From NCBI GenBank assembly GCA_937876625.1, contig CALEGN010000311.1, positions 3,454 through 67,453 on the forward strand: a DNA stretch of 64,000 nt, written 5' to 3'. Within the stretch, counting starts at the first letter, position 1; every line of letters begins with the position of its first letter. A program made the position numbers and the translations under genes. This DNA comes from an uncultured Pseudomonadaceae bacterium (GTDB taxonomy: Bacteria > Pseudomonadota > Gammaproteobacteria > Pseudomonadales > Pseudomonadaceae). A model generated the notes under the pieces. The model was given only the letters and a program-made list of their open reading frames with translations. It made no database searches and was not told the origin of the DNA. Positions 7,421 to 32,900 of this stretch are shown in pieces.

Positions 7421-8065
7421 ATGAAACGAATCGCCCGGTTATCCGGTGAAGCCCGCAATGCCAGCACCGTGCTGGACAGCCATACCCGGCTGATCGCACT
7501 GCTGCGCCAGTATCTGCCCCCCAGCACCGCCACCCTGTTTGCCCGGCCCAAAGCCGTGGAAGGACAGACCGTGGAATGGTATTCCGAGCTCGGCGGCCAG
7601 CCACAGCCGTTCAGCAACCTGCCTCCCCAAGAGGCTGCCCGGGCTCGCCAGCAGCTGGATGAACGGCTGGCCAGCCTGCACGGACTGGCCGACCAGCTGG
7701 AGCCCCGGGGTGAAGAAGGCCGCCAGCAGGCAGCCCTGCTGCGCCAGGCGGCGGAATACCCGGATACCGATACCCTGTACGTGCTGAATGGCCAACCCGT
7801 AATTACCTTCTGGGGCGGGGGCAAAGCACCGCAGCAGCGCCACCCACCAGTGACGAGCCCAAACCCGAGCCGGAACCACCGGCAGCGGTGGAGCCGGTCA
7901 AGGCTGATGTGGTCAAGCCAGAGCCCAGGCCAGTATCCGTGCCGAAACCAGAAGCCAAACCGGCACCTGAACCAGTGCCAAAACCAGTGCCCAGGACAGA
8001 ACCCAAACCAGAACCCAGGCCGGAACCTAAACCGGAGCCCAGGCCTGACCCGCTGGAGGCAGTGA
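7421..8065 (+). CDS. Hypothetical protein; probably the N-terminal part of the downstream vWA protein, separated from it by a frameshift
   Basis: ATG 7421 has GGAG 10 nt upstream. After about 7830 the translation (PNPSRNHRQRWSRSRLMW...) looks like an out-of-frame reading of the Pro/Glu/Lys repeat encoded in the next ORF's frame. Confidence 0.45.
   Translation: MKRIARLSGEARNASTVLDSHTRLIALLRQYLPPSTATLFARPKAVEGQTVEWYSELGGQPQPFSNLPPQEAARARQQLDERLASLHGLADQLEPRGEEGRQQAALLRQAAEYPDTDTLYVLNGQPVITFWGGGKAPQQRHPPVTSPNPSRNHRQRWSRSRLMWSSQSPGQYPCRNQKPNRHLNQCQNQCPGQNPNQNPGRNLNRSPGLTRWRQ
7840..8052 (+). repeat. Low-complexity coding repeat (EPKPEPRP-type)
   Basis: Translates to PPTSDEPKPEPEPP...KPEPRPVSVPKPEAKPAPEPVPKPVPRTEPKPEPRPEPKPEPRPDP, with reiterated GAACCCAAACC/GAGCCCAGGCC units at the DNA level. 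Confidence 0.6.
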
Positions 8066-8919
8066 AAAAACGCATCGAAGCTGCTGGCAGCAACTGCAAG
8101 GCCCTGCAGCAGCTGCAAAGTGGTGAGCCCCTGCTGAAACAGCAGCCCGAGCTGCGTGCCAGGGTAGAACAGAAACTCGGCCAGAATTGCCGGGAGCAGC
8201 AGATCGTCAACGCGAAAAATCTCTGCCCGGACGAACGGCCCAAGGAACTGGCGCCTGAGCTGGCCATCGTCTTTGACGCCTCCGGGTCAATGGACATCAG
8301 CCTGCTGGCCACCGAAGAAGAAGTCCGGCGCGCCTCCATGGCCCAGGGTGTGGCCGATATCGCGCTGGGCATGCTGATTGGCGGCAACCCGGGACTGAAC
8401 ACCATGGGCCACCTGTTCCGCGAGCCGAAACGGATCACCGCCGCCAAACAGGCCACCACCGCGGTGGTACAGCGGCTGCCAGGGGACGTCAATGCCGGCC
8501 TGGTACTGGTCGAGGATTGCCCGAGAGCACGCAGTGCCGGATTTTACGCCCCGTCCCAGCGCGGCCAGCTGCTGGGACGCGTCCAGGGTATCCGCCCGGT
8601 GGAAGGTACACCGCTGGCCGATGGCATTGCCCGGGCCGGGCAGATGCTGGACGGGGTCAACCGCGAATCGGTGATGCTGGTGGTTTCCGATGGCGGTGAA
8701 AGCTGCGGCCAGGACCCCTGTGCCGTAGCCCAGATGCTGGCCCGCAGCAAGCCGCACCTTAAAATCAACGTGATAGATATTCTGGGTACCGGTGCCGGCA
8801 ACTGCCTGGCCCGGGCTACCGGCGGCCAGGTGTTTACCGCCCGCAACGCCAGCGACCTGAATATCATGACCCGGCAGGCAGCCAAAGACGTGCTGCCACC
8901 GGCCCACTGCAAACCCTGA
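7888..8919 (+). CDS. von Willebrand factor A (vWA) domain protein with Pro/Glu/Lys-rich linker
   Basis: MIDAS motif IVFDASGSM (DxSxS), later VVSDGGESCG. This reading frame is open back to 7714, which overlaps the previous ORF. Confidence 0.75.
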   Translation: MEPVKADVVKPEPRPVSVPKPEAKPAPEPVPKPVPRTEPKPEPRPEPKPEPRPDPLEAVKKRIEAAGSNCKALQQLQSGEPLLKQQPELRARVEQKLGQNCREQQIVNAKNLCPDERPKELAPELAIVFDASGSMDISLLATEEEVRRASMAQGVADIALGMLIGGNPGLNTMGHLFREPKRITAAKQATTAVVQRLPGDVNAGLVLVEDCPRARSAGFYAPSQRGQLLGRVQGIRPVEGTPLADGIARAGQMLDGVNRESVMLVVSDGGESCGQDPCAVAQMLARSKPHLKINVIDILGTGAGNCLARATGGQVFTARNASDLNIMTRQAAKDVLPPAHCKP

Positions 8920-8928
8920 AGGTGATTC

Positions 8929-10293
8929 ATGTCCCTTGATATCGTGATTCTGGCAGCGGGTCAGGGGACCCGCATGCGCTCTGCCTTGCCCAAGGTGCTG
9001 CACCCGGTTGCCGGCCAGCCCATGCTGGGCCATGTGATCAATACTGCCCGCCTGCTGCAGCCGCGCAGTATCCAGGTGGTTGTGGGGCATGGGGCAGAGC
9101 AGGTCCGGGCCATGCTGGAAGCTCCTGACCTGAGCTTTGTCCTCCAGGCCGAACAGCTGGGTACCGGCCACGCCCTGGCCCAGGCCCTGCCCGGACTGAC
9201 GGCAGGGCGGGTGCTGGTGCTCTATGGCGACGTGCCGCTGATTGAAGTGAATACCCTGCAGCGCCTGCTGGCGCAGGCCAGCGCGGAACAGCTGGCCCTG
9301 CTCACGGTGGAGCTGGCTGACCCGGCGGGCTACGGGCGGATTGTCCGCGACACCCGCGGCCAGGTACAGGCGATTGTCGAACACAAGGACGCCACACCCC
9401 GGCAGCAGCTGATCCGCGAGGGCAATACCGGCATCCTGGTCCTGCCTGGCGCCCGGCTGCCCGGCTGGCTGGGCCGGCTGTCCAACCACAATGCCCAGGG
9501 CGAGTACTACCTGACTGACGTCATTGCCATGGCCGTGGCCGAAGGTGTGCCAGTGGCCACCGCCATGCCCGAGGACGAGCAGGAAGTCCAGGGCGCCAAT
9601 GACCGCATCCAGCTGGCCGCACTGGAGCGCCATTACCAGCGCCGGGCCGCCCGCCGGCTGATGCTGCAGGGCGTCAGCCTGCGCGACCCGGAGCGCTTTG
9701 ACCTGCGCGGCGAAGTCACGGCAGGCCGGGATATACAGATCGACATCAATGTGATCCTCGAAGGCCGGGTAGTGCTGGAAGATGGCGTGGTGATCGGCCC
9801 CAACTGTGTGATCCGCAACAGTTACCTGCGCCGGGGCGCCGTGGTCCGGGCCAGCTCCTGCCTGGACGGTGCTGAACTGGGCGAAGGAGCCGACTGCGGG
9901 CCGTTCGCCCGGCTGCGGCCCGGCGCGGTACTGGAAGCAGCCGCCCATGTGGGCAATTTTGTCGAAGTCAAAAATACCCGGCTGGGAGCCGGGGCCAAGG
10001 CCGGGCACCTGGCCTATCTGGGGGATGCCGAGATCGGGCCGCGCAGCAATATCGGCGCCGGGACCATCACCTGCAACTATGACGGCGCCAGCAAGCACCC
10101 AACCCGGCTGGGCGAAGATGTGTTTATCGGCTCCAACAGCTCGCTGGTGGCACCGGTCAGTCTGGGCGACGGCGCCACCACGGCAGCCGGCTCGGTGATT
10201 ACCGACGATGTCCCGCCCGGACAGCTGGCGCTGGGCCGGGCCCGGCAGATCAACCGGGCCGGCTGGCAGCGACCGGTAAAACCGGAAAACTGA
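8929..10293 (+). CDS. glmU: Bifunctional GlcNAc-1-P uridyltransferase / GlcN-1-P acetyltransferase
   Basis: LAAGQGTRM nucleotidyltransferase motif, C-terminal left-handed beta-helix hexapeptide repeats, 454 aa. Confidence 0.97.
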
Positions 10294-10411
10294 GCGCTAT
10301 GGCCTGACAGAATAAATTGTTCAAAATCGTGCATTTAGCCCGGTATCTGGACGCCTTCTGCGGAGAAAACTAGAGTTCAGGCGTTATCCATCGCCCGTCA
10401 GGAACCCTGTC

Positions 10412-10978
10412 TTGAATACACCTGCTTCTCCGGCCGCACTGACTACCCCCGTGCTGGCCTTCTGCGCCAGCCTGTCTCCCGGCCAGACCCCGGTCTGGCT
10501 CCAGCCGGCCACGCTAACCCCTGCAGAGTCTGCGGAAGTCCGGGGCTGGCTGATCCGGGAACAGCCCGGCCTCTATCTGGAAGCGATTCCCCATGTGGCC
10601 CGGCACACCCCCGAAGGGCACTGGTCCGACCCGGAACCGCCCGTTACAGGCGGCCCACGCCTGTTTCTGCCCGGCGATGGCCAGAAGATCGCACTGGTCC
10701 GCCGGGCCCTGGTGGACAGTCCGGTGATTAACGATCTGCTGCGCCTCTACCAGGCTGAAGCCCGGTTTGGTCTGGCTCCCCTGCAGGGTGCCCGGGAACA
10801 ACTGTTCTACGCGGCCAAAGAAGCCCGCACCCTGCTGGAAAGCCTGGCCAGCTCCGGACTGAACCGGGCCAGGACCTGCCCCTGCGGCAGCGGCGAGCGT
10901 TACCGCCACTGCCATGAACCGCTGATTGCCGAACTGCTGCGGATGCTGGAGGCCGGAGAGGCTGATCCAGCGACTTGA
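10412..10978 (+). CDS. SEC-C motif-containing hypothetical protein
   Basis: C-terminal CPCGSGERYRHCH metal-binding SEC-C motif. TTG start as given by the track, so the start is uncertain. Confidence 0.6.
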   Translation: MNTPASPAALTTPVLAFCASLSPGQTPVWLQPATLTPAESAEVRGWLIREQPGLYLEAIPHVARHTPEGHWSDPEPPVTGGPRLFLPGDGQKIALVRRALVDSPVINDLLRLYQAEARFGLAPLQGAREQLFYAAKEARTLLESLASSGLNRARTCPCGSGERYRHCHEPLIAELLRMLEAGEADPAT

Positions 10979-11035
10979 CAGGCATTGTCCTTCAGGTTCT
11001 GATTCGTAACCTGAAAATTTCGGATCGAAACCCGA

Positions 11036-11791
11036 ATGGGCAAGCACAACACGGCCGGGCGCCACCAGCAGATTCTGGAACTGCTCCAGCAGCAGGGTGA
11101 AGTCCGGGTGGATGAGCTGGCCGGCTACTTCCACCTGTCCAGCGTCACCATCCGCAAGGATCTGGATGTCTTGGAGCGCGCTGGCCAGCTGGTTCGGCGC
11201 CATGGCGGAGCCATTCTGGCCAGCACCCGCCGCCGCCCGGCCCTGTCGCCCTACAAACAGGCGATTGCCCGGGAGGCCCTGCGCCTGGTCCGGCCACGCA
11301 GCCGGATCATCCTCGACAGCGGCCATACCACCGCCGCCATGCTGCCCGGCCTGGGCCAGATGCCCGGCCTGGTCGTGATGACCAATGCCCTGAGCGTGGC
11401 CAATGCCCTGAGCAGCCCGGAACAGGGCCCCACCCTGCTGATGTCTGGGGGCACCTGGGACCCGCAGTCCGCCTCTTTCCAGGGGCAGCAGGCCGAGCAG
11501 GCCCTGCGCGCCTATGACTTCGACCAGCTGTTTACCGGCGCGGACGGCATCGACCCGCAACGCGGAACCACCAGTTTTAGCGAGCTGCTGGGGCTGTCCC
11601 GGGTGATGGCTGAGGTGGCCCGGGAAGTGGTAGTGCTGGCCGAAGCCGACAAGGTTGGCCGGCGCATGCCCAACCTGGAGCTGCCCTGGCCGCAGGTACA
11701 GATCCTGATTACCGATTCACGCCTGCCAGACAGGGAACGTGCCGGCCTCGAGGCCCATGGCATCCGGCTGATCTGTGCAATCCCTGACTAA
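11036..11791 (+). CDS. glmR: DeoR-family transcriptional regulator (GlmR-like by position)
   Basis: DeoR HTH (RHQQILELLQQQGEVRVDELAGYFHLSSVTIRKDLDVLE) plus a DeoR C-terminal sensor domain. It sits between glmU and glmS as in Pseudomonas. Confidence 0.8.
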   Translation: MGKHNTAGRHQQILELLQQQGEVRVDELAGYFHLSSVTIRKDLDVLERAGQLVRRHGGAILASTRRRPALSPYKQAIAREALRLVRPRSRIILDSGHTTAAMLPGLGQMPGLVVMTNALSVANALSSPEQGPTLLMSGGTWDPQSASFQGQQAEQALRAYDFDQLFTGADGIDPQRGTTSFSELLGLSRVMAEVAREVVVLAEADKVGRRMPNLELPWPQVQILITDSRLPDRERAGLEAHGIRLICAIPD

Positions 11792-11806
11792 CCGAGGAGA
11801 ACAGCC

Positions 11807-13639
11807 ATGTGCGGCATTGTAGGCGCCATCGCCGAGCGCAATATCAGCCCGGTCCTGCTGGAGGGCCTGAAACGTCTGGAATACCGGGGCTACGACAGCG
11901 CCGGCCTGGCCCTGCTGGATGAGCAGCACCCGCTGCAGCGGCTGCGCCGGGTTGGCAAGGTGGCTGCGCTGGAGCAGGCCCTGCAGGATGCCGGGCTGAC
12001 CGGCCGGCTGGGTATTGCCCACACCCGCTGGGCCACCCACGGAGCCCCCAGCGAACGCAACGCCCACCCGCACTTTTCCGGCGACGTGGCCGTAGTGCAT
12101 AACGGCATCATTGAAAATTATGAGGTCCTGCGCGAACAGCTGCAGGCACGGGGCTATGAATTCCAGTCCCAGACAGACACCGAAGTGATTGCCCACCTGC
12201 TGCATCACCGGCTCCAGGCCATTCCCGACCTGACCCGGGCCCTGCAGGCCACGGTCAGCGAGCTGCAGGGCAGCTACGGTGTGGCGGTCATCTGCGGCCG
12301 CTTTCCCGACCGGCTGGTGGCCGCACGCAGTGGCAGCCCGCTGGTGATTGGCCTGGGCCTTGGCGAAAATTTTATTGCCTCCGACCAGCTCGCCCTGCGC
12401 CAGGTCACTGACCGCTTTATCTACCTGGAAGAAGGCGACATTGCAGAAATCCGCCGCGACCAGCTGCAGATCCTTGATCGCCACGGCCAGCCGGTGCAGC
12501 GGGAGATCCTGCAGTATCACGAAGGCGCCGAAGCGGCGGATAAAGGCGAATACCGCCACTTTATGCTCAAGGAAATTCACGAACAGCCCGGCGTGGTCCA
12601 GGCTACCCTGGAAGGCCGGCTGGGTCAGGAAAACGTCCGGCCAGAAGCCTTTGGCCCGGAGGCCACCGCCCTGTTTCACCGGGTAAAAAACGTGCAGATC
12701 GTGGCCTGCGGTACCAGTTTCCATGCTGGCCTGATTGCCCGCTACTGGCTGGAAGCCCTGGCCGGAGTAGCCTGTCAGGTCGAGGTGGCCAGCGAATTCC
12801 GTTACCGGCCGGTGGTGGTCCAGCCCGGGACCCTGTTTGTCAGCATCTCCCAGTCCGGCGAGACCGCCGACACCCTGGCCGCCCTGCGCAATGCCCGGAA
12901 TATGGGTTATCTGGGCAGCCTGGCCATCTGCAACGTGGCCACCAGCTCACTGGTCCGCGAATCGGACCTGACCCTGCTGACCCGGGCTGGCCCGGAAATT
13001 GGCGTGGCGTCCACCAAAGCCTTTACCACCCAGCTGGTGGCACTGCTGCTGCTGACCCTGGCCCTCGGGCAGGTACGCGGCTGCCTGGCCGCCGGGCTGG
13101 AAGCCCGGCTGGTGCGCGACCTGCGTCGCCTGCCTGCCCGGCTGGAGGAGGCGCTGGCAGTGGATGCCGCGGTCGAACAGGTGGCTGAATCCTTCGCCGA
13201 CCGCCACCACACCCTGTTCCTTGGCCGGGGCACCCTGTATCCGGTGGCCATGGAAGGCGCACTGAAACTCAAGGAGATTTCCTATATCCATGCCGAAGCC
13301 TATCCGGCCGGTGAACTCAAGCATGGACCGCTGGCGCTGGTGGACAGTGACATGCCGGTCGTCACCGTGGCCCCCAGCAACGAGCTGCTGGAAAAGCTGA
13401 AGTCCAACCTGCAGGAAGTCCGGGCCAGAGGCGGCGAGCTGACTGTTTTTGCCGACGGCCAGAGCGGCCTCAGCAACGGCGAAGGCACCCGGCTGGTCAA
13501 TATGCCCTCCATCTGCGACACCCTGGCCCCGATCCTGTACACCATCCCCCTGCAGCTGCTGGCCTACCATGTGGCCGTACTCAAGGGCACCGACGTGGAC
13601 CAGCCCCGTAACCTGGCCAAGTCCGTTACGGTGGAATAG
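11807..13639 (+). CDS. glmS: Glutamine--fructose-6-phosphate aminotransferase
   Basis: MCGIVGA N-terminal Cys nucleophile, two SIS domains, canonical C-terminus LAKSVTVE, 610 aa. Confidence 0.98.
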
Positions 13640-13663
13640 CGGAACGGGGTTCTACCCCGCACT

Positions 13664-13730
13664 TGTGGGATGTAAATAAAGATTCATCCGTTTAAATAAA
13701 GTGTCATCCTTACAAATAAAGTTTCATCCT
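13664..13730 (+). repeat. Tn7-type right end: terminal TGTGGGATG plus three 20-bp-phased TnsB-site repeats
   Basis: AAATAAAG-N-TCATCC occurs at 13674, 13694 and 13714 (gtAAATAAAGatTCATCC, ttAAATAAAGtgTCATCC, acAAATAAAGttTCATCC). Closely packed sites are typical of a Tn7R-type end. Confidence 0.85.
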
Positions 13731-13783
13731 TAGCCTGTATCCGCTATGTTGAGGTCATCGACACAGGGGGTGCAGGCTTTCTC

Positions 13784-14010
13784 ATGTCTGGAACATTCAA
13801 AGGGCTGACCCAGGCCCAGATCGATAGAAGGCTCAAGGACGGGCGTGGCCAAGGCCAGGGACCGGACTACAAGCCGTTCATCTACACCAGGGACGTATCC
13901 TCGTTGGGGCGTTCCCACCGCCTGCCTGGCAGCAAGACCCGGCGTTTACACCATCTTCTATCTGATTTGGAACTGGCCATCTTCCTGACCTTGGATCGGT
14001 CTGCCCATGT
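13784..14010 (+). pseudogene. tnsA: tnsA 5' fragment (interrupted by nested element)
   Basis: MSGTFKGLTQAQIDRRLKDGRGQGQGPDYKP...GRSHR...HHLLSDLELAIFLTLDRSAHV parallels Tn7 TnsA (...ARRIKEGRGQGHGKDY...GRSHR...HHLLSDLELAVFLSLEW...). The frame then runs into the inserted end and stops (VGCK*). Confidence 0.9.
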
Positions 14011-14287
14011 TGTGGGATGCAAATAAAGTCTCATCCTACTTTCCGTGAACACCGCGCCGGGCCTGCTGATATGCTGATCAGGAGGCCCGCTGCCCACTCT
14101 CTCAGGATCGACCTCGATCCCCGCCCAATCCTGACAGAGAGCCCCTATGGCTACCCGCCGAGCTGCTTCCCTTCGCCCCAGACAATTCCGCCACCTGATC
14201 CGCGTTGCCTCCGTAACCGGGCGTATGCCCGAGCGAGACGTGATGGAGACGATCCGCAGGGCGTTCGAGTTGGCTCTTTAATCTTTA

Positions 14288-14347
14288 GCATATGGCTTGC
14301 ATATGCCCTTGCATGCAGCTACATTGTGCATATGTCGAACATATGCC
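14288..14347. promoter_or_regulatory. Candidate vapBC promoter/operator with reiterated GCATATG / CATATGC motifs
   Basis: GCATATG at 14288, 14299 (as the palindrome GCATATGC) and 14328, plus the inverted copy CATATGC at 14340. All lie within 75 nt upstream of the vapB ATG. Confidence 0.35.
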
Positions 14348-14360
14348 GGAGTCGCAAGTA

Positions 14361-14591
14361 ATGCGTACCGTCTCTATCTTCAAAAACGGCAAGAATCAGG
14401 CCGTTCGCTTGCCCGCCGACATGGCCTACGAGGGTGTTGGTGAGCTTGAGATTTCACGGGAAGGCGACGTGATCACGCTGCGCCCTGCGCGGCCATCCTG
14501 GGCGTCTTTTGCTGAGCTGCCGAAGGCTGATCCTGACTTCCTGCAAGAGCGTCCCCCCGTGGTTGGTGATGAAGGCAGGTTCAGTCTGTGA
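14361..14591 (+). CDS. vapB: VapB antitoxin (AbrB/SpoVT-type)
   Basis: MRTVSIFKNGKNQAVRLPADMAYEGVGELEISREGDVITLRP is a typical SpoVT/AbrB swapped-hairpin antitoxin N-terminus. GTGA overlap with vapC. Confidence 0.85.
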   Translation: MRTVSIFKNGKNQAVRLPADMAYEGVGELEISREGDVITLRPARPSWASFAELPKADPDFLQERPPVVGDEGRFSL

Positions 14592-14998
14592 TCACCTACA
14601 TGCTTGATACCTGCATCTGCTCTTTCATCATGCGAGAGCACCCGGCCTCAGTAATCCAACGCCTTACAGCAGAAGTTGAGCAGGGCAACCGAATTGTGAT
14701 TTCGGCCATCACCTACGCCGAAATGCGTTATGGGCAGATCGGCAAAAAGGCATCGATCAAGCATAAGACGCTGGTGGATGAGTTTGTGAAGCGCCTGGAT
14801 GCTGTGCTGCCATGGGATCAGAGGGCTGTCGATGCCACCGTCGAGGTCATGCGCTTGCTGGTCAAGGCTGGCACGCCGATTGGCCCTAACGACACCGCTA
14901 TTGCAGGGCATGCAGTGGCTATTGGCTGCACGCTTGTGACCAACAACGTGCGTGAATTTGGCCGTGTTCCTGGCCTGATTTACGAAGACTGGGTTTAA
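14588..14998 (+). CDS. vapC: VapC PIN-domain toxin
   Basis: MLDTCICSFIM..., ...ISAITYAEMRYG..., ...NDTAIAGHA..., ...LVTNNVREF: PIN acidic residues in a VapC arrangement, 136 aa. Confidence 0.9.
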   Translation: MITYMLDTCICSFIMREHPASVIQRLTAEVEQGNRIVISAITYAEMRYGQIGKKASIKHKTLVDEFVKRLDAVLPWDQRAVDATVEVMRLLVKAGTPIGPNDTAIAGHAVAIGCTLVTNNVREFGRVPGLIYEDWV

Positions 14999-15181
14999 GA
15001 GGAAAACCTCGATGAAGCTCGAAAAGATGACACTTTATTTGTATGTCAACTGGCGAGCCTGCCGTCCTGAGCACACTCACCTAGCATTAGGATGAGACTT
15101 TAGGTGCAGATTGAGGTGTAAGGCTCCCAGCCAGCCCAGCAAACTCATTCGCACCGGATGCAACTTTATTTGCATCCCACA

Positions 15182-15787
15182 CATGTCACCGATATCCGTG
15201 AACAGTTCCCGATGCGGGTCGAAGATACGATGCGCATCGCCGAGGAGCTTGGCCTGCCCCACGGGCGTTACAAAGGCACTCCGCAGGTACTGACCAGCGA
15301 CTTTCTGGTGGATTTCGAAGATCCCCAGCGTCCGAACATCGCGATTCAGGCCAAGTACAGTGCCGACCTGCAGAAGCCTGAAGTCATCGAAAGGCTTGAA
15401 CTTGAGAGGCGTTACTGGCAGGAAAAAGGTATTCCATGGGTCATCGTCACGGAGCGTGAGGTATCCAAGGTGGCATTTGCCAATATCCAATGGCTCTATC
15501 CTGCCCATGCTGAAGACGATATCGCTCTGGACGATCTCGCCCATTACCAGCAGCTGTTTCTGCTCGAGTTTCAGCGTCACCCAGATCGGAAGCTGACCGC
15601 TATTGCCCAAGGACTGGATACCTCCGGCCAGCTGGAGGCCGGTCAGGCGCTCTATTGGCTACGCCAGTTGCTGGCCCGGCACTGTTTCCTTTTCGATCTA
15701 GACATCCATTACCGAGAGCTGAAGCCGAAAGACCTGGTTGCCAACGCTCATCAAATGCATCAGGAGCTGAGCAGTGCTTCCCGTTAA
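15182..15787 (+). pseudogene. tnsA: tnsA 3' fragment
   Basis: HVTDIREQFP...TSDFLVDFED...AIQAKYSADLQKPEVIERLELERRYWQEKGIPWVIVTE parallels Tn7 TnsA (LDIREQFPL...STDFLVDCKD...AIQVKP...LEKLELERRYWQQKQIPWFIFTD). It continues directly from the 5' fragment once the insert is removed. Confidence 0.9.
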
Positions 15788-17861
15788 TCAGGTGTTCCGG
15801 ATAGGAGAACTGCGAAAGCGCCTGCTGTGGTCCGGCACCGAGCAGGCCATCTGGATCGATATCGATTCGGACACGGCGTTGCCCGAGCCGATATCGGTTG
15901 CAGAGCTGGAGCGTCTGCTCATGGAGCGGGAGCTGGAGAGCATTGTCGATCCCTTCGAGGAGACAGTCCTACGGGAGGCTGTGGAAGATTCTCTTGATCA
16001 GCAGAAGCGTGATGAGGCTTGGGCAATGGTGGCGGATTTTGTGCACGATCCCCAGCTTTTCGTGCGGCGTCCCAGAGGACTCATTGTCAGAGGCATCATG
16101 GAGCGCCATGGTGTTACCAAGCAGACGGTGTATAGGTTACTGAGGCGCTACTGGCAGCGAGGCATGTGCAGGAACGCCCTCTTGCCGGACTATGTCAACT
16201 CGGGCGCCCGTGGCAAGCGCAGAAAGCCGAGCCAGGCCAAGCTGGGCAGGCCCCGAGTGGTGATGGAGGGGAAAGGGAGCAATGTCACGCCGGACATCGA
16301 GCGCATTTTTCGTCGGGTCATCGAGGAGCGCTTGCTCAAGGAAAAACATCCGTCCATTCCGGATGCCTACGCCTCCGGGCTGAACCTGCTCCGTGCTGTT
16401 CTGTCGCAACTACCGACCTCAGAACTGCCTACATTGGGGCAGTTCCGTTACTTCTATGGGCGCGAGTATCACTTCACCGACACCTTGCCATGCAGGGTGT
16501 CCGCAGTGGATTTTGCCAAGGACTTCCGGCCGCTCAGCAGCACATCAACGACCGAGGCACTTGGGCCTGGATACCGCTACCAGATAGATGCCACCATCGC
16601 CGATATCTATCTGGTTTCAGAACATGATCGCAGCCTTATCGTCGGCAGGCCTGTCGTTTACATGGTGATCGACGTGTTCAGCCGCATGGTCGTTGGCATG
16701 TACGTCGGATTCGAGGGGCCTTCCTGGGTCAGTGCCATGGTGGCATTGGCCAACACGGTCGCCGACAAGGTTGAGTATTGCCGCCAGTATGGCGTGGAGA
16801 TCGATGCCAGCGACTGGCCGGTCAAAGGCTTGCCGGATGTGGTGCTGGCCGATAAGGGCGAACTGAATGGCACCAAGGTGGAAGCATTTTCCCAAGCCTT
16901 CGGCGTTCGCATCGAGAATGCACCGGCCAAGCGAGGAGATGCCAAGGGGATCGTCGAGCGTTATTTCCGGACGGTGCAGGAGCGTTTCAAACCCTATGCC
17001 AGCGGAGTGGTCGAGGACACTACCAGCCGGAAGCGGGGTGGCCACGACTACAGGCTTGATGCCAGCCTGACCTTGCCTGAATTTACCCAGATCATCATCG
17101 CCGGCATCCTCCACCACAACAACTTTCACACCTTGAGCAAATACGACAGGACCTCTGGTATGCCGGGCGATCTGCCAGCCATTCCGGTCATGCTGTGGAA
17201 CTGGGGCTTGGCTAACCTGACCGGTCGGCTACGTACTGCGCCCGAGGAGCTAGTGCGGATCAATCTTTTGCCCCATGAGTCGGCCACGGTTTCGGAACTG
17301 GGAATCAGGCTGTTCGGCTGCTTCTACAGCTGTCAGGAAGCAATCAGGGAGGGGTGGTTCCACCGAGGTCAGGGGCGCCGGCCTACAGGGGTAACGGTCG
17401 CATACGATCCGCGTAGCGCCGACCACATCTACCTGCGGCCGTCCAATAGCCTCAAGGACTACTGGGTTTGCGATCTTGCCGATCGTAGTCGGCGCTTCAG
17501 GGGGATGACCTTCTGGGATGTCTGGCTGCTGTCCAGAGAGGAACGACGTAGCGATACCAAGGCAGCTGCACAAGCTTTGGTAGAGAAGGGTAATCTTCTG
17601 AAGCAGATCGAGTCCATCATTGCCCAGGCAGAGGATGCAAGTCCGGTAAAAACGGGTATGACCAAGAAGGATCTGGGAACCCAGATCCGCGAGAACAAGC
17701 AGCAGGAAAAGCGCCAGGAACGCCAGAAAACAGCATTCAAACCGGAGAAAATACAGCAGGAAAAGCCGGCGGAGGTGATCCCATTGCGGGGAGAGAAGCA
17801 GGAAGACTATGCCTTCCCGGGTCTTAGCGACCTGATATTCAAGGAGGAAGAGGATGACTGA
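15774..17861 (+). CDS. tnsB: Tn7 transposase TnsB (DDE, Mu/retroviral-integrase superfamily)
   Basis: VTKQTVYRLLRRYWQRGMCRNALLPDY, YQIDATIADIYLV, VIDVFSRM, LADKGEL, RGDAKGIVERYFRT. Collinear with Tn7 TnsB. GTG start at 15774 overlaps the tnsA end; exact start uncertain. Confidence 0.95.
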   Translation: MLPVNQVFRIGELRKRLLWSGTEQAIWIDIDSDTALPEPISVAELERLLMERELESIVDPFEETVLREAVEDSLDQQKRDEAWAMVADFVHDPQLFVRRPRGLIVRGIMERHGVTKQTVYRLLRRYWQRGMCRNALLPDYVNSGARGKRRKPSQAKLGRPRVVMEGKGSNVTPDIERIFRRVIEERLLKEKHPSIPDAYASGLNLLRAVLSQLPTSELPTLGQFRYFYGREYHFTDTLPCRVSAVDFAKDFRPLSSTSTTEALGPGYRYQIDATIADIYLVSEHDRSLIVGRPVVYMVIDVFSRMVVGMYVGFEGPSWVSAMVALANTVADKVEYCRQYGVEIDASDWPVKGLPDVVLADKGELNGTKVEAFSQAFGVRIENAPAKRGDAKGIVERYFRTVQERFKPYASGVVEDTTSRKRGGHDYRLDASLTLPEFTQIIIAGILHHNNFHTLSKYDRTSGMPGDLPAIPVMLWNWGLANLTGRLRTAPEELVRINLLPHESATVSELGIRLFGCFYSCQEAIREGWFHRGQGRRPTGVTVAYDPRSADHIYLRPSNSLKDYWVCDLADRSRRFRGMTFWDVWLLSREERRSDTKAAAQALVEKGNLLKQIESIIAQAEDASPVKTGMTKKDLGTQIRENKQQEKRQERQKTAFKPEKIQQEKPAEVIPLRGEKQEDYAFPGLSDLIFKEEEDD

Positions 17862-19464
17862 AGGATTCCCGCGCGCAGTTATTCCCCTGGCGCGTTACCA
17901 AGAGCAGCAGCTTCCCGAGTATCAGGACAATCCGCTCATCAGCGCATTGCCTCCGATTCCTGATTTGCAGGAGGTAGTCGGTCTATTGCAGCAGCTTCCC
18001 GGTTTTGAGCCGCAGGAGGCGCATCTGGATGGTCGGCTCAGGGCTCATGCGATTGCCCGTCTGTTGCATGGTTTCTTCCAGCCGCTGAGCCATCACTTGG
18101 AGCTGGAAAGCAAGATCAGCCTGATGATCCGTCAGGGGTACATCGGTCGGAATCCGGCCAGCGGTGCCTGGTATGCGCATCTGCAGAATGGCTATCGTCG
18201 TGTCGAGGAGGAGGATCTGGATGCGGCGGTGTACCAGAGTGTCTCTTCTACGGCCAACAGTCTATCGCTGTTCGGTTGTTCCGGTTGCGGCAAGACGCGC
18301 ACGCTGGAGCGGATCCTGGGTATGTATCCCCAAGCTCTCCATCACCCTGAATACAACATCACTCAATTGGTCTACCTGAAGGTCGACTGTCCCATTGACG
18401 GTGACCTAGATGAACTGTGTCTGAGCTTCTTCAACGAAGCAGACAAAATACTGGGCACCCACTACAGCCGTAGCCACGGACGCAAGAAGCTGGGTACTAA
18501 ACGTCTGCTGGCATCCATGTGCCAGGTAGCCAATCTGCACGCGCTCGGAGTGCTGATCATCGACGAGGTTCAGAACCTCAACGAGGCACGCTCCGGTGGT
18601 GCCGAGAAAATGCACAATTTCTTCGTGTCGCTGGTGAACACCATAGGTGTTCCGATCATTCAGGTTGGCACCCACCGGGCCAGTAAGTTCTTCCAGCGTA
18701 CTTTCCGGGCTGCTCGGCGGGTCTCCGGGCTGGGTAGCATCCGCTGGGATAGATTGCCTCAGGACGAGCACTGGAGGCGTCTGTTGAAGCGGCTCTGGAA
18801 GTATCAGTGGCTGCGAAATGCGGCGCCGCTGGATGACGAACTAGAGGCGACCATGTACGACCTCACTCAAGGGGTCATGGACATCGTCATCAAGCTGTTC
18901 GCGCTGGCTCAGATTCGGGCAATAGTGACAGGGATCGAGTGCATCAAGCCGCTGTTGCTGCGCAGGGTTTTCGAGGACGAGTTCAAGCCGGTCCATCCGA
19001 TGCTGGCGGCTTTGCGGAGTGGTAGACCTGAACTGATCGCCAAGTATGACGACCTGCTGATGCCTGAGATCGAGGGACGGTTGCTGACCCTGACGCGCTC
19101 ACTGGATCACGTCGCTCAATCGAAGCCGCCGGCCCCTCCGGCTGATGACAAGGCGAAGCGGCTGGCAACTCTGCTCGAAGATATGGAAATCCCGAGGGAC
19201 ATCGCCATTCCCATGGCCGATGAATTGCTGACGGAAAATCCGGACATCCCGTTGGCAGTCCTGATTCATAAGGCCACGGCCTACCTCGCGCAGGACGCTC
19301 CCAAGAGGCCTGGAATTTCCAGGGTTAAGCGTACGCAGTGGGGGTGTTTATCCGAGGAGGATCTGCGTCGACGTTATGCCGATGGGCCTGAGAGCGAGGC
19401 CTATGAAAGATTCAAGCAGGCTGGCCTGATCTTCGATCTGCGACCTCTGCTGAGGGCAAGCTGA
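17854..19464 (+). CDS. tnsC: Tn7 AAA+ regulator TnsC
   Basis: Walker A GCSGCGKTRT, Walker B LIIDEVQNL, and NPLISALPP, MIRQGYIGRNP, VHPMLAALRSG, all collinear with Tn7 TnsC. 8-nt overlap with tnsB. Confidence 0.95.
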   Translation: MTEGFPRAVIPLARYQEQQLPEYQDNPLISALPPIPDLQEVVGLLQQLPGFEPQEAHLDGRLRAHAIARLLHGFFQPLSHHLELESKISLMIRQGYIGRNPASGAWYAHLQNGYRRVEEEDLDAAVYQSVSSTANSLSLFGCSGCGKTRTLERILGMYPQALHHPEYNITQLVYLKVDCPIDGDLDELCLSFFNEADKILGTHYSRSHGRKKLGTKRLLASMCQVANLHALGVLIIDEVQNLNEARSGGAEKMHNFFVSLVNTIGVPIIQVGTHRASKFFQRTFRAARRVSGLGSIRWDRLPQDEHWRRLLKRLWKYQWLRNAAPLDDELEATMYDLTQGVMDIVIKLFALAQIRAIVTGIECIKPLLLRRVFEDEFKPVHPMLAALRSGRPELIAKYDDLLMPEIEGRLLTLTRSLDHVAQSKPPAPPADDKAKRLATLLEDMEIPRDIAIPMADELLTENPDIPLAVLIHKATAYLAQDAPKRPGISRVKRTQWGCLSEEDLRRRYADGPESEAYERFKQAGLIFDLRPLLRAS

Positions 19465-19465
19465 C

Positions 19466-20964
19466 ATGTACTTCCCCAGGCTCTACCCGGACGAACTGCT
19501 CTACAGCGGTATTGCCCGGTGTCGAGTACATCTGGGGATTGGCAAGCACAAGACTTTGCTGCACATGCTTTTCGGTGACAGCAAGGTTGCCGCGATCACC
19601 GATCTGCCAACACACCTGACAGCTCTGGCGAACAATACTGGTCTTGACCCAACAAACGTGATCAAGAATCACACTCTGTTCCCGCTCTATGCCCCTTTCA
19701 TTCCGCCGGAGCGCCGTACCGATCTTTTTCAGGCCATGCTAGCTCCCAACCGGACGACGATTGGCCTGTCAGGGGCATCGACGGCCTTGGTCAAATGGCC
19801 CGAGTGGCTGCGTTACTGCCCGGTTTGCTTCGAGGGCATGGCGGCTCGTTTTGGTGAGCCCTACTGGCGGCGTAGCTGGCAGATCCAAGGGATAGATGCC
19901 TGTGCAGAGCATGGCTGTCAGCTCCTGAACTCACCCATCCCATTCCGTCGAGCGCAGCGGCATGAGTTTCATCCAGCCTCTCCACTGTTTCTGCCTCGTG
20001 ATCTTCGCGTGACCCCCGCGGGCGAAGAGGCTATCAGGCTCGCCAAGGCTGCTATGCAGTTGCTGGCGCTCGAAGAGGTGCAATCGCCTACGGGTGCTGG
20101 ACCAACCTGTACCGGTACCTGGCTACAGAGTGTGGCGCCAGGCGCGGCCGACAGGTCAGGGCTGAAGTCATTTGGGAGAAGGTCTTGGCATCCAATCGCA
20201 GGGATTGGCTTGCTGCTAACGGTCTGCTGACATCCGGAGAGTGTCCACCTTGGCTGTTTGCGATGTTCAGGAAGCATCGCAAGGGATTCAGTGCTCTGCA
20301 GCATCTGATTGTCTGGACCAGCCTGCGCCCTGGTCAGCATGTTGGCTCGCTGATCAGTGAAGCGAATACTCACCAGATCGACCTTGCCTCCGAGCGGTCA
20401 GTGCAGATGCTCCCTGCTGAGTTTGAGCATAAGCAGCAATACCGAACCATTTGGCTGCGAGCACTGGCTTATCACGGTGGAGCCAAAGCAGCCAGGCAAG
20501 ACGGAGCAGGGGCATGTTATGCCTAGCTTTATCGTCATGACCGACATTGGTTGATGGTTACGAACCAGGTCAGGCAGCACCGACAGGGCAACAACAGCCA
20601 CATCGACTGGGGAGCGCGCGACAGAAGGTTGGTGCGCCTGCTGATCCGGATTGGCAGAGGTAGTGAAGAAGACCTGGGCTTTCCGCGCAGGAGCCGCAAC
20701 TGGTTCCTGCAGCAGCTACCCCATCGGGCATCAGTTGAGCACCATCTCGGTCAACTGCCTCTGTGCCGCGCTTTCCTGGATCGCTATGCCGAGTCTGTCG
20801 GCGAGTATCAGATCCGTCGCCTGACTGCAGCGATGCTGGAGGATGTACAGACAGGCATAACGTCCAGGCGCTGGGAGCTGGAAAAGCGTTGTGGATTGGA
20901 AAAAAGCAGGATGGTACCGCTGACCACTGCGTTCGTTAGATTGATAGGAAGATGGATTGAATAG
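19466..20964 (+). pseudogene. tnsD: tnsD (TniQ-family attTn7 target selector), inactivated by one frameshift and one amber codon
   Basis: N-terminal TniQ domain with CPVC...CAEHGC. The frame switches near 20085-20092 (…EEVQSP | AYGCWTNLYRYLATECG…). TAG at 20524-20526 interrupts …CYA*LYRHDRHWL…, where Tn7 TnsD has YAWLYRHDRDWL. Total span is 1499 nt, one short of a multiple of 3. Confidence 0.85.
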
Positions 20965-22579
20965 GACTGTATTTCGTCAGATCCCGAACGGATCCAAATT
21001 ACTGGCCGTTGGAAATTTTTTCAGGGCCCCGACTCCGACAGCCGAGTGGCGCTTGGCGGCTCTCTTTGAGCGTAACGGTCAGTTGCAGCTGCAGCAGTTC
21101 GCAAAGGAGATGTCGTGTGTCTTGGCTGTTGGTCGCGAGTTTCTTGGAGACGAAGGGCCTCCCTACCGTCCTAGTGGTTTCAAGAAGACCGTGGTGCTTC
21201 CTGCAATAGATACCTGGCGGGAGCGGCAGTTGGGTGAGTGTCCACGTCTGGCCAGAAAGCTTGCTGCAAATCCTGAGATATCAGGACAGCGATGCTTTGT
21301 GTTTGAGGTCGATGGTCTGACCGTCTGGTTGCCGAAATTCGAGCTGGCGCGAAAAATGTTCTTCCACGCAGCCTTTATCGTGCGTGCAGCCTTCGAACCG
21401 AATGGCTTGGACATGGCCTTCACGCTCTACAGAGAGGACGATGTTGTTCATATCCATACGCCCGCGAAGACAGGTGCACCAAGTCAGCTTCTCAAAATCA
21501 GGGGATACCGAGACCATTTCAGTTGGCTGCTGCTGAATCAGGATGTGAAGCGATCCTTCGAGTCAATCTGGCAAAGCCTCAACCAAGGGCAGGAGCGGGT
21601 ACCGCAAGGTTCGGCGTATGCCAGGTGGCAGTTCGACTTTCAGGCACCCCCTTCCCTCGCGGGTACCTCCATGGATGTACGAGGTCCCTTTGATCCGGAA
21701 AGCAACGAATTGCTGGTCTGGGAGATCGAAAAGCTTCAGGGGCTCCGGTTTACCCATCGTGGCGATGTTTTTTTCCACCACCCTGCTCTCAAGTTACCAG
21801 TCAGGGGGGAAAAAACAGACTGTGTATCTGTGCCATCGGGAGCTGAAGAAGTGGAGGTGGATGCTGATGAAGAGCCAACGGCTGCCAAGGAGCAGAGGTT
21901 GATTCATCTGCCCGTTGAGGGAGTTACGTTTGATGCTCAGATGCGCACCAAGATCGCCTACAGCGGGGAGCGTGCCAACGGTCATGGCAAGATGGTCGAC
22001 GATGAGCAATGCCCGAGCAGAGAAAGCCAACTCTTCGGCGTGGCTGATCCTGTGAGCGAGGGCAGCATAGCGTCAGGAGAATTCCAACAATTGGGTGAGG
22101 GAGAGGGTGATGGGGACGAGCATGAACGGCTTGCAGATCGCTTCTCGCTGCTCCGAGAGATTCTTGAACAAATCACCCAAGAGTCTGGAGTTGCGCTGGT
22201 AGCACTGGAAGTGAGGCCTCTGCCGCCCGTTCCACGTTGCAGCTACCACATGATCGATCACGAAAAATCACGCTGTTATCTGCTGGCAAGGTTCAAGCTG
22301 CAAAACGGCGATCAACGCTACCTTCTAGAAATAGATACCTCAGACAACCGGAAGACCATGTCAACGCGGATCATGGGCTTCAAAGCAGGTGTTGAGGCAG
22401 GAAAATGCATAGACAGGATCTTGAGGGAGACAGTGAAAGGCTCGTTGCGTTGGCCAGGCACCATGGCGAAGTACTGTGAGCCTTTGCACTCTGTGCATCA
22501 CCCGAAAGAAAGCTCATCTGGGGCCAACCATACCAGGGTGTTCGACTGGAAGCAGCGCATACGCGCTGCCCTGAGCTGA
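20957..22579 (+). CDS. tnsE: TnsE (alternative target selector)
   Basis: FELARKMFF, SWLLLNQDVKRSFESIW, WQFDFQAPP, YLLEIDTSDNRKTMSTRI and GSLRWP...HHPK parallel Tn7 TnsE (LELARSLFL, VWLFSDQDVMDSYESIF, FSFDPPP, VLLEVDASDGVKMLSTKV, SSLNWP...NHPK). 540 aa against 538 aa in Tn7. TTG start per the track. Confidence 0.85.
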   Translation: MNRTVFRQIPNGSKLLAVGNFFRAPTPTAEWRLAALFERNGQLQLQQFAKEMSCVLAVGREFLGDEGPPYRPSGFKKTVVLPAIDTWRERQLGECPRLARKLAANPEISGQRCFVFEVDGLTVWLPKFELARKMFFHAAFIVRAAFEPNGLDMAFTLYREDDVVHIHTPAKTGAPSQLLKIRGYRDHFSWLLLNQDVKRSFESIWQSLNQGQERVPQGSAYARWQFDFQAPPSLAGTSMDVRGPFDPESNELLVWEIEKLQGLRFTHRGDVFFHHPALKLPVRGEKTDCVSVPSGAEEVEVDADEEPTAAKEQRLIHLPVEGVTFDAQMRTKIAYSGERANGHGKMVDDEQCPSRESQLFGVADPVSEGSIASGEFQQLGEGEGDGDEHERLADRFSLLREILEQITQESGVALVALEVRPLPPVPRCSYHMIDHEKSRCYLLARFKLQNGDQRYLLEIDTSDNRKTMSTRIMGFKAGVEAGKCIDRILRETVKGSLRWPGTMAKYCEPLHSVHHPKESSSGANHTRVFDWKQRIRAALS

Positions 22580-22795
22580 TCGCAATGTGCGCCGCAGTTC
22601 GGCTGCGACACAACTTGTCGCGAGCTGTGTGTAGCCTCATCGGGACTTACTGGCGCCGTGCCCTGGCGATGTAGGCACGGCTGGCCACTGGCTCCCGCTT
22701 GGTCGAGAGGTTAAGGTTCTCCACCTATCAAGATATCCAGCAGGGACGCGGCGTTCAGGCGCTCTCCCGGCCTCTGTACACAGGGAGAAGATGGC

Positions 22796-25700: not shown

Positions 25701-26593
25701 CGCAAAGGTACGGGTTTGGCGATGAGCTCTCGCTATCTTATGCCGCTTCTCCAAGCCGCGTCGCGCAAGGACTGGCCGACAGCATTGAGATGCTTGATTT
25801 TGCCGAGGCGGAAAGGATAGTGACGTTCCTCACTCTTTCGGAGCAAGGCGTTCGCAGGCTGTCCGGAAGGAGTGTCGACGAGATCGATGTTCCTTACTGG
25901 GAGCACAGTAAGCGAATCCATCGATACGCGATCAGGCCGCTGGTTGTCGATGGCACAAACTTGCGTTGGGGAGCAGAGACGGTCAGTCGGTCGATGTACA
26001 ACTGGATGTCAGCAGTGCGGGACGGCTACCTCCCTGCGGACTTCGATTGGCCCCATGTCCAACCAGTCATACGGGAGGTCAAGGAGAGTATCGAGAATCG
26101 GCTGGAGCTCCGCACCGAGGAGATATTCCTTCGGCACACTCCATTCGTTCATCGAGGCATCGACTTTTTCCGGAAGTTCCGCAGCGAGGGGTTCGAGGAC
26201 GTCGGGGACTTCGACGTATTCGCTTATTGGCCAGATGCGAACCTACTCGTGACCGTGGAGTGCAAGTACAACCAGCCGCCCTACACAGTGAAAGATGGCC
26301 GTCGACTCCGTGACCGAATATTCGGCAAAGCTGAGGACGACAAGGCTGGGCAGTTCAGTCGAATTCTTCGCCGAAGGCAGTTTCTCGAGAAAAACCGCGC
26401 AAGGACGCTTGAGCTGTTGAAGTGGCCGAAGTCGGAGGCCAAGCCTTTCCGGCATGTGGAGCTCTACGTGAGCCGTGACGTGTACTACTGGATGGTTCAT
26501 CCGCCGTACCCTGTTCCGACCAAGTTCGTGCGAGTGGACACACTGGATACCTGGATCAAGACCGAGCTCATCACGTCTCGCCCCCATGTCTGA
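22796..26593 (+). CDS. Cargo gene A: 1265-aa uncharacterised protein with a C-terminal PD-(D/E)xK-like nuclease motif
   Basis: GGGAGA (22783-22788) lies 7 nt before ATG 22796. No P-loop seen. Near the C-terminus, GDFDVFAYWPDANLLVTVECKYNQ (about 26204-26275) fits a D...E-x-K restriction-endonuclease-like core. The rest is not recognisable to me. Confidence 0.85.
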   Translation: MGKKSREKRERRLARMEADHGLLLQEMLGFHGKIAYEKDQGHSFRKRLEATRALLRQYERLDAAIALSVSELWLANAGSPIKHIFAWGVLLDLPHDDQGGMPIASYADFKAFAEALYEAWPEFPMLEDFSSEADWGETKVRLGQAFVPMFYGSCIERTPDFVEAFRITYAQVPEAQAHMDLAIALQARIIESMLDLGGAPAGESQQAHVEVPPEDFWLACRLTLQQIGTDIADWRDKARGALDTRFGAFKAPLTWRAFGDAVMQGVALPFLAVESDGTWVPMSARNAPGVVVDHWANNAMVEVGAHTHRRLALFVAERFPRTVVGPLALVIGGSICEELPISCVISANSGVYLICACDHASNERLSIAAKDVYGKVRRGAPIHFRLADGRGLMLSKDGTNGPSADELRIVIVVTQAGTALGSISAPERPARLLPLADFITIFDSLSDLDELECYWEFVDSQRGSLSLFSSGPADLYASFKDTNGVLVEGAISPTLIGLDPHWGTSWRFKALADFWSRAPSVFPDGSVGWRLSNGTKGVVDLQSRHHKAVAYSTSVGSCTIQTLVEISEGLGIEDARMLDLFAQLLADCTYRCRELMSDIPLFRQQHVLFICGLAHSSSVGNDEAPQPIEGFERAVISAEEDAARKSILHLQVDARAVLAGLNAAKDGSFEVRCLLETLERCHDVCGLELPIGFGERLRGRASEPARYHLRVAARNVDVPDYVEPVIPSPANYKLARKHLAAEIMALDLAPGRYELSDAKARIDPAGARLRLHIENRLASLDRYQLLRAFIEQHDALLVTERMKIQRTRQSLAHDVDYDRLEAIEQARKDYGSVARHYRYLLEKTVSSPATGTEDATDDVLRELVGLVDWYMVLTGASDVLHNGIDVGGVEIDDSYIPEVFYSTGADDREAEFAREYAKSRLGLGANSEDAVEGASEDLLSSEKFKSAFAADVGFDLQNLVTALAVLSQAQRYGFGDELSLSYAASPSRVAQGLADSIEMLDFAEAERIVTFLTLSEQGVRRLSGRSVDEIDVPYWEHSKRIHRYAIRPLVVDGTNLRWGAETVSRSMYNWMSAVRDGYLPADFDWPHVQPVIREVKESIENRLELRTEEIFLRHTPFVHRGIDFFRKFRSEGFEDVGDFDVFAYWPDANLLVTVECKYNQPPYTVKDGRRLRDRIFGKAEDDKAGQFSRILRRRQFLEKNRARTLELLKWPKSEAKPFRHVELYVSRDVYYWMVHPPYPVPTKFVRVDTLDTWIKTELITSRPHV

Positions 26594-32868: not shown

Positions 32869-32873
32869 ACTGT

Positions 32874-32900
32874 TGTGGGATGAAAATAAAGTTTCACTCC
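32874..32900 (+). repeat. Solo Tn7-type end (relic) abutting the transposon left end
   Basis: TGTGGGATGAAAATAAAGTTTCACTCC lies 5 nt (ACTGT) beyond the transposon terminus in inverted orientation. No further sites or tns genes follow it; the glyQ promoter region comes next. Confidence 0.6.

Follow-up and report, generated by a model that had tools for sequence, protein, structure and literature searches.

Tight control of the target and target immunity are what transposons of the Tn7 family are prized for, and mini-Tn7 constructs reduced to the two ends are in routine laboratory use. In mating-out assays, Tns proteins provided in trans mobilise such ends-only minis, and Tn7-type joining generates 5-bp duplications (PMC11014353, PMC11406308). 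The resident ends of both prototypic Tn7 and Tn6022 inhibit a second insertion nearby: an immobilised element occupying the comM site lowers Tn6022 transposition into it from roughly 100% to roughly 2x10^-5 %, and with TnsABC alone or with a TnsC'-'TnsF fusion the drop is no more than 50- to 200-fold (PMC11014353). Tn6022 elements nested in one another are nevertheless documented in Acinetobacter baumannii genomes, a pattern read by the authors as target immunity that is "weak or overwhelmed" (PMC11014353). Here we describe a nested structure of this kind in a 64,000-nucleotide stretch of contig CALEGN010000311.1 (the window) from an uncultured member of the Pseudomonadaceae. With a probability that we put at about 0.85, a non-autonomous mini Tn7-like element carrying a vapBC operon was mobilised in trans, transposed into a related Tn7-like element resident at the attachment site attTn7 (the outer element) and broke its tnsA gene. 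Both the mechanism and nested Tn7-like insertions are already known, and no new mechanism is involved.

The mini element resembles the engineered mini-Tn7 and mini-Tn6022, in which two ends in cis suffice, TnsABC and a target selector act in trans and a 5-bp duplication results (PMC11014353, PMC11406308), but it is natural and has a toxin-antitoxin operon aboard, its family combines a right end cut down to one or two sites with a left end of 65-bp site spacing, and its insertion point is not attTn7 but the transposase gene of a related element. Tn6022 insertions, internal and proximal, in the AbaR islands of A. baumannii (Correa et al. 2024, PMC11014353) likewise place a Tn7-like element inside a related one with its own 5-bp duplication. 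There, however, comM is targeted via TniQ and TnsF, the nested elements are full-size and the nesting correlates with the TnsC'-'TnsF fusion, whereas the present locus combines a glmS-targeting TnsABCDE element, a TnsC of normal length and a 1.2-kb non-autonomous intruder. The Tn3-derived inverted-repeat miniature elements (TIMEs) and other bacterial transposable elements of the miniature inverted-repeat type (MITEs), which are common in Pseudomonas, also lack a transposase, keep the ends of their parents, are moved in trans and sometimes carry cargo (PMC4133298, PMC10969869); TIMEs, however, depend on the replicative chemistry of Tn3, whereas the parent family of the present element is that of heteromeric TnsA+TnsB cut-and-paste transposons. 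A review of MITEs names Tn7 only as the attTn7 example and in its reference list (PMC10969869), and searches of the literature turned up neither natural MITEs derived from Tn7 nor any non-autonomous Tn7-like element, although most subscription journals lay outside their coverage and novelty is therefore unproven.

The insertion in tnsA is delimited by the following features, the two direct repeats being read from the sequence.

13784-14010, plus strand: 5' fragment of tnsA, codons 1-76, holding the catalytic residue E63
14006-14010, no strand: target-site duplication CATGT, left copy
14011-15181, plus strand: non-autonomous mini Tn7-like element, 1171 bp, with an 18-bp perfect terminal inverted repeat, no tns genes and near-identical copies elsewhere
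14011-14036, plus strand: right-type end of the mini element; its one TnsB-type site occupies 14021-14036
15023-15181, minus strand: left-type end of the mini element, comprising the terminus and three TnsB-type sites 65-66 bp apart
15182-15186, no strand: target-site duplication CATGT, right copy
15187-15787, plus strand: 3' fragment of tnsA, codons 77-275, holding D114, Q130, K132 and the C-terminal domain

The insert opens with TGTGGGATGCAAATAAAG, and its final 18 nt are the exact reverse complement of the first 18. These terminal 5'-TGT...ACA-3' inverted repeats span 26 nt at 92% identity in an extended version. The left junction reads ...CCCATGT/TGTGGG and the right junction CCCACA/CATGTCACC; the tnsA frame runs through ...LTLDRSAHV and then, inside the insert, through VGCK to a stop codon. 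The window contains 5 occurrences of the 18-mer terminus (at most 3 mismatches tolerated), with 0.03 expected, and 11 of the 16-mer TnsB-site motif, with 0.46 expected, no shuffled sequence reaching either count; at fixed ends, a 5-bp flank match would arise by chance with a frequency of about 1/1024. The putative TnsB sites are distributed asymmetrically, one at the right-type end and three (15025-15040, 15090-15105 and 15156-15171) at the left-type end, where the 65-bp spacing includes the spacer CCCAGCCAGCCCAGCAAA. The same site motif is found in the ends of the outer element. Direct reading of the sequence and the positions of the motifs thus agree with the preliminary description of this DNA in the split of tnsA after LTLDRSAHV, the limits and inverted termini of the insert, the perfect CATGT repeat, and the single end site on the left with three dispersed copies on the right.

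Joining 13784-14010 to 15187-15787 yields an 828-nt open frame that encodes 275 amino acids and reads ...SAHVTDIREQFP...; in the uninterrupted gene, ...CCCATGT would run directly into CACCGATATC. The restored TnsA contains both TnsA Pfam domains (N- and C-terminal), aligns without gaps to ten intact 275-residue TnsA proteins, two of which are 96% identical to it, and matches Tn7 TnsA (1F1Z) with an E-value of 7e-61 and identical residue numbering through position 110. An in-frame restoration collinear with Tn7 TnsA, as claimed earlier, is accordingly recovered, and the intact alleles that the preliminary description proposed to look for exist, the best of them 96% identical. In the related elements L004-L011, tnsA is uninterrupted, as is tnsA-tnsB-tnsC-tnsD(-tnsE) in the longer contigs, which speaks against the possibility, raised at the outset, that the segment is an ancestral part of tnsA in related transposons. 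Because the break falls after V76, E63 is parted from D114, Q130 and K132, and neither fragment carries the full catalytic set; the proposed knock-out of the 5'-end nuclease holds on both counts, the split of the gene and the separation of the catalytic residues. The closest autonomous relative with an intact tnsA (L004, positions 13871-15403; 96%) carries HSP20 and ClpB/ClpK-like genes as cargo, and its type of TnsA is encoded on more than 50 plasmids of Klebsiella, Escherichia coli, Acinetobacter and Pseudomonas.

Further copies of the 1171-bp element, the search for which had likewise been proposed, were sought by exact look-up of VapB and VapC, and three short metagenome contigs (L001-L003) were found in which the mini element is 99.4-99.6% identical and lies beside other flanking DNA. 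L003 contains the whole mini element behind a different left flank (99.6% identity), and its right-type end has two sites spaced by 20 bp, the copy in the window being one 20-bp unit shorter. L001 and L002 contain the right part of the element, followed by the right flank CTTGC and then by an XRE/HigA-like gene related to Azotobacter plasmids. The junctions between the right-type end, a recombinase-gene remnant, vapBC and the left-type end are conserved in L001-L003. Both L001 and L002 break or diverge exactly in the loop of a 13-bp inverted repeat (CGGGCCTGCTGAT / ATCAGGAGGCCCG, at 14058-14089 in the window), located in the leader of the recombinase gene, and this shared breakpoint is probably an assembly effect of the hairpin.

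Shorter siblings of the mini element were located through its left end in PLSDB. An ends-only element of 328 or 329 bp is present, at 98.8-100% identity, on at least 11 plasmids of Pseudomonas and Stutzerimonas. Complete copies were inspected at four sites, three of which show a perfect 5-bp duplication (ACTTG, GCCGC and AACCT); the flanks of the fourth do not match. The copy flanked by ACTTG sits inside the tnpA gene of a Tn3-family element. Another sibling, of 458 bp, contains a single 65-codon open reading frame (ORF), is flanked by TTTAG as its duplication and sits in the interval from traJ to traK, beside oriT, on the IncP-1-like conjugative plasmid NZ_CP100552.1 of Pseudomonas sp. KHPS1. 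This plasmid also carries the 329-bp element.

L099 7771-8098; L100 2501-2829; L102 2501-2828; L103 2501-2828: copies of the 328/329-bp element
L101 2501-2826: copy of the 328/329-bp element on pRA2, without an intact left terminus
L098 7719-8176: 458-bp sibling

The siblings are built alike: the right end has two sites, the left end has three at intervals of about 65 bp, and the sequence between the sites is conserved. The left end of the outer element is laid out differently. Since near-identical copies of the vapBC mini element have other flanks, and since its siblings have duplications of their own, it is a genuine mobile unit, and the vapBC element is the cargo-bearing member of a natural mini Tn7-like family ranging from 328 bp to 1.2 kb. 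Natural mini-Tn7s thus exist, from ends-only forms of 328 bp to forms of 1.2 kb with a toxin-antitoxin operon, and they provide a natural set of substrates for defining the minimal number of TnsB sites per end. Taken together, the intact tnsA alleles, the copies beside other flanks and the siblings with duplications bear out the claim that a non-autonomous Tn7-type insertion destroyed the tnsA gene of a related element.

The interior of the mini element comprises four recognisable parts.

14040-14281, plus strand: remnant of a small tyrosine-recombinase gene (5' untranslated region and about 33 homologous codons), identified by nucleotide identity to plasmids
14288-14347, no strand: upstream of vapB, a pair of imperfect palindromes, GCATATG...CATATGC (repeat families D6 and I10)
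14361-14591, plus strand: vapB, antitoxin of 76 residues (Pfam MazE_antitoxin, 32.8 bits; NCBIfam TA_anti_VapB, 87 bits with a cut-off of 60)
14588-14998, plus strand: vapC, PIN-domain toxin of 136 residues (Pfam PIN, 46.1 bits; 3TND and 6SD6, E-value 2e-24)

The antitoxin gene precedes the toxin gene, and the GTG start codon of vapC overlaps the stop codon of vapB by 4 bp (GTGA). The product of vapB matches the MazE/AbrB-type fold in Pfam and, above the cut-off, in NCBIfam. VapC is similar to the structures of tRNA(fMet)-specific VapC toxins (3TND and 6SD6), and in the alignment with the Shigella/Salmonella protein 3TND, the MLDT, PxD and TNN motifs and the glutamate of YAEM/LMEL line up, the acidic residues of the PIN active site being conserved. 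The two genes are predicted to form a VapBC type II toxin-antitoxin pair. Specificity for tRNA(fMet) is not claimed because VapC scores below the cut-offs of the equivalog models (113 against 140). The palindromes are a candidate VapB operator. The recombinase remnant (14040-14245) is 82-97% identical at the nucleotide level to plasmid DNA of Pseudomonas, Stutzerimonas and Stenotrophomonas, in which it is annotated as an integrase, and recombinase genes of this type are common on Pseudomonas megaplasmids. The remnant ORF (14147-14281) diverges after ...RMPERDVM, stops after 44 codons and gives no Pfam match. Because the recombinase remnant matches plasmid DNA and stands alongside vapBC, the interior is a mosaic of plasmid-type DNA between Tn7-type ends. 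The insert contains no tns gene, and protein-family matches are limited to the vapB and vapC ORFs; the preliminary description of an element with vapBC only and no transposase is accurate as to the tns genes and, apart from the recombinase-gene remnant, nearly so as to "only". Compared with plasmids, the whole insert gave partial matches only, to the recombinase remnant and to vapBC (85%), and compared with complete E. coli genomes it gave none; among 80 species-representative genomes with relatives of VapC (at most 88% identity), no relative lies between Tn7-type ends. A scan of the insert for promoters and terminators returned nothing informative.

The 18-nt termini of the mini element are identical to the right ends of the sister lineage L004-L009 and L011, and differ from the outer right end at one of the 18 positions, a position at which ends of otherwise functional appearance carry T, C or A. 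The comparison of inner and outer end sites suggested earlier thus matches the termini of the mini element to the L004 type, and the near-identity of inner and outer termini stands. Because the termini are near-identical and the outer TnsB is 96% identical to that of L004, recognition of the mini ends by the Tns proteins of either the outer element or the sister lineage is plausible. The insertion point lies 347 bp inside the outer right end with its three sites. When the DNA to the left of the insertion is compared in register with the attTn7 region of glmS, 18 of 89 positions match, below the random mean of 23.5, which rules out insertion into a TnsD pseudo-site; a TnsE-directed or untargeted TnsABC transposition would be a likelier route than TnsD.

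The history that we infer, in which the movement in trans, the helper involved, the route of targeting and the rare escape from immunity are all reconstructed, would proceed as follows. A non-autonomous element consisting of a right-type end, a three-site left-type end and a cargo of vapBC and the recombinase remnant, with no transposition genes, would have been recognised at its ends and excised by Tns proteins acting in trans from a related autonomous element. These proteins could have come from the surrounding TnsABCDE element in its intact state, or from a sister element that was co-resident or plasmid-borne. The mini element would then have been joined to a 5-bp staggered cut in tnsA, with gap repair creating the CATGT duplication, and the cut of TnsA after residue 76 would have left the outer element without a functional 5'-end nuclease. 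At this locus, a hitchhiking transposon would thus have come into tangible conflict with an autonomous one.

Several observations weigh against this reconstruction. No autonomous parent with a 65-bp-spaced left end was found, and the plasmid matches H57 and H60 are further short variants or incomplete ends that lack tnsABC in their vicinity; the sole source of Tns proteins in the window is the disrupted outer element itself. The vapBC mini element is rare, as the exact 28-mer of its left end is absent from species-representative genomes and from JGI metagenome contigs. The right-type end in the window carries one site and that in L003 two; a 20-bp unit may have been lost from the former, either ahead of the insertion or afterwards, and this copy is perhaps no longer mobile. 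The locus is metagenome-assembled DNA, the matching contig L097 (SPAdes), 100% identical to positions 7829-25787 of the window, being of the same kind. Finally, the notion of an insertion "despite immunity", which extends to this locus by analogy with prototypic Tn7 and Tn6022, may overstate the barrier, given that immunity is not absolute.

A second nested structure bears on the latter point. In Pseudomonas brenneri GCA_977010645.1 (L012, positions 9881-11540; also L013), the right end and the first 592 nt of tnsA are present in two 100% identical copies at a distance of 712 bp; the second of these runs into a complete tnsABCD, the first lying directly upstream of this full element, and the TnsA protein P0042 ends with LWDANKVSS..., which is the translation of a Tn7 end. 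The structure, of which only the near side is seen, looks like an element inside its own identical copy or like a partial duplication. The case came from the inspection of truncated TnsA proteins and says nothing on frequency. Among the other truncated TnsA proteins (P0046, P0059, P0078, P0086, P0087 and P0093, and plasmid matches H92 and H145), no tail is the translation of a Tn7 end; tnsA of H92 is cut by IS26, and the other truncated genes checked are cut by IS26 or by other rearrangements. The nested insertion in the window shows only that any immunity barrier here is not absolute. It would represent a rare escape from immunity in a glmS-targeting TnsABCDE lineage rather than a new principle, and the locus is a natural example on which the leakiness of immunity in a prototypic-type TnsABCDE lineage could be measured, as was done for Tn6022.

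The occurrence of full-size nesting in this lineage, illustrated by the right end of a full-length copy within a tnsA fragment of P. brenneri, lends some credence to a different origin of the mini element, namely that a full-length Tn7-like element entered tnsA and then shrank in place to 1.17 kb by internal deletion, without ever moving as a mini. Yet the same internal junctions are found at 99.4-99.6% identity beside flanks other than the tnsA locus (L001-L003), and the ends-only 328- and 458-bp siblings carry their own duplications at several sites, which makes such shrinkage very unlikely. An artefact of metagenome assembly, such as a chimeric join at short repeats, might be suspected given that the window is matched by a SPAdes metagenome contig and that the host is known only from metagenome assemblies. 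A chimera would, however, produce neither a perfect 5-bp duplication nor an exact in-frame restoration of a conserved 275-residue protein, the repeats in common with the outer end are only 18-27 nt long, and four long contigs carry the identical 209-codon 3' ORF of tnsA that starts in the left end of the mini element; an artefact of this kind is hardly credible. The same ORF (15158-15787) could in principle be translated and act as a catalytically dead TnsA that turns the outer element replicative, considering that it retains D114, K132 and the C-terminal domain and that catalytic point mutants of the full-length TnsA give replicative Tn7 transposition (May and Craig 1996, as cited in PMC11406308). 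The ORF lacks the first 76 residues of the nuclease fold, though, its ATG lies inside the left end of the mini element with no recognisable ribosome-binding site before it, a promoter scan found none there, and tnsD is broken as well, so that this scenario appears extremely unlikely. The switch to replicative transposition upon loss of TnsA, put forward in the preliminary description, applies to catalytic point mutants of the full-length protein and probably not to the present locus, where the protein is cut in two and tnsD is frameshifted: a TnsA cut at residue 76 is unlikely to substitute for a catalytic mutant, and a dead outer element is likelier.

The remaining alternative concerns targeting. 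TnsD bound at an occupied glmS site might still recruit TnsC, with immunity at the resident right end shifting the joining step downstream by a few hundred base pairs and making tnsA a recurrent target. Both nested events do fall in tnsA, 347 and 712 bp inside the resident right end, and in both the right end points toward glmS, as TnsD dictates. There are only two such events, however, the second of which is subject to ascertainment bias through the way it was found; the other truncated tnsA genes have different causes; and TnsD-directed insertions of prototypic Tn7 occur at a fixed distance from glmS (PMC11014353). Displaced targeting is hence decidedly improbable. The broader proposition, that an occupied attTn7 redirects related elements a few hundred base pairs into the right arm of the resident, with tnsA as the recurrent casualty and minis carrying toxin-antitoxin genes disabling their own helper, is quite improbable too; if it were true, these non-autonomous minis would be "parasites of the parasite". 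Transposition of a trans-mobilised mini element into tnsA of the outer element is the reading retained here.

The outer element and its surroundings comprise the following features.

11807-13639, plus strand: glmS, ORF of 610 codons, the 3' end of which defines attTn7
13664-13731, plus strand: outer right end, terminus TGTGGGATGTAAATAAAG and three TnsB-type sites with 20-bp spacing
15774-17861, plus strand: tnsB, 695 residues, apparently intact (Pfam Mu-transpos_C; 96% identical to L004 TnsB and of equal length)
17854-19464, plus strand: tnsC, 536 residues, apparently intact (Pfam AAA_22 and TniB; 96% identical to L004 TnsC)
19466-20964, plus strand: tnsD pseudogene, identified by alignment and tblastn against L004 TnsD (Pfam TniQ in the first ORF, TnsD C-terminal match in another frame)
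20957-22579, plus strand: tnsE, 540 residues (Pfam TnsE_C, E-value 5e-44; 94% identical to L004 TnsE)
22796-32452, plus strand: cargo, consisting of a 1265-codon ORF, a gene for a NACHT/STAND NTPase of 1511 residues and a 481-codon ORF
32650-32868, minus strand: outer left end, terminus TGTGGGATGAAAATAAAA with scattered sites at 32843, 32695 (degenerate) and 32650

As in prototypic Tn7, the genes follow the order tnsA, tnsB, tnsC, tnsD (tniQ), tnsE inward from the right end (Pfam assignments), the right end starts 24 bp past the glmS stop codon (13639 to 13664), its sites are clustered and those of the left end dispersed, and the catalytic residues of TnsA are numbered as in 1F1Z. Unlike prototypic Tn7, the outer element belongs to another lineage, has an interrupted tnsA, a frameshifted tnsD and a NACHT/STAND cargo, and is flanked by unmatched 5-bp sequences. 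The right end aligns with those of related elements and is arranged relative to glmS as in P. brenneri (L012), which also has the same glmU - DeoR regulator - glmS synteny. Relative to the intact 500-residue TnsD of L004, tnsD has lost 4 bp near 20087, so that the frame changes beyond roughly residue 208; what is left is a 254-codon TniQ-domain ORF and out-of-frame remainders, the relative used for comparison being 92% identical. Relatives with 96% identical TnsA, TnsB and TnsC have genes of equal length and an intact 500-residue TnsD. With TnsA split and tnsD frameshifted, the outer element is most likely immobile, and judging by its genes it is best regarded as an immobilised, decaying copy.

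No matching 5-bp duplication surrounds the outer element as a whole: GCACT (13659-13663) and ACTGT (32869-32873) share only ACT. ACTGT is followed, from 32874, by a solo right-end-like stub, TGTGGGATGAAAATAAAGTTTCAC, just before glyQ (region 32869-32899). The unmatched outer flanks and the solo stub point to a more complicated history at attTn7; an older element, since deleted almost entirely, with the present one inserted 2 bp upstream of it, would account for the arrangement, as would a recombinant history, and under either of these attTn7 has been visited more than once. Exact-protein look-ups for the outer TnsB and for GlmS returned no match, although both are encoded in L097, and no strain with an intact copy of the outer element or with an empty attTn7 was recovered. 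The best named relatives of GlmS come from Pseudomonadaceae (80-83% identity), with Azomonas macrocytogenes at the top (83%). Neither the 1265-codon nor the 481-codon ORF of the cargo has a Pfam or NCBIfam match; the NACHT/STAND NTPase shows weak similarity to Avs1b, and the cargo may be an anti-phage module.

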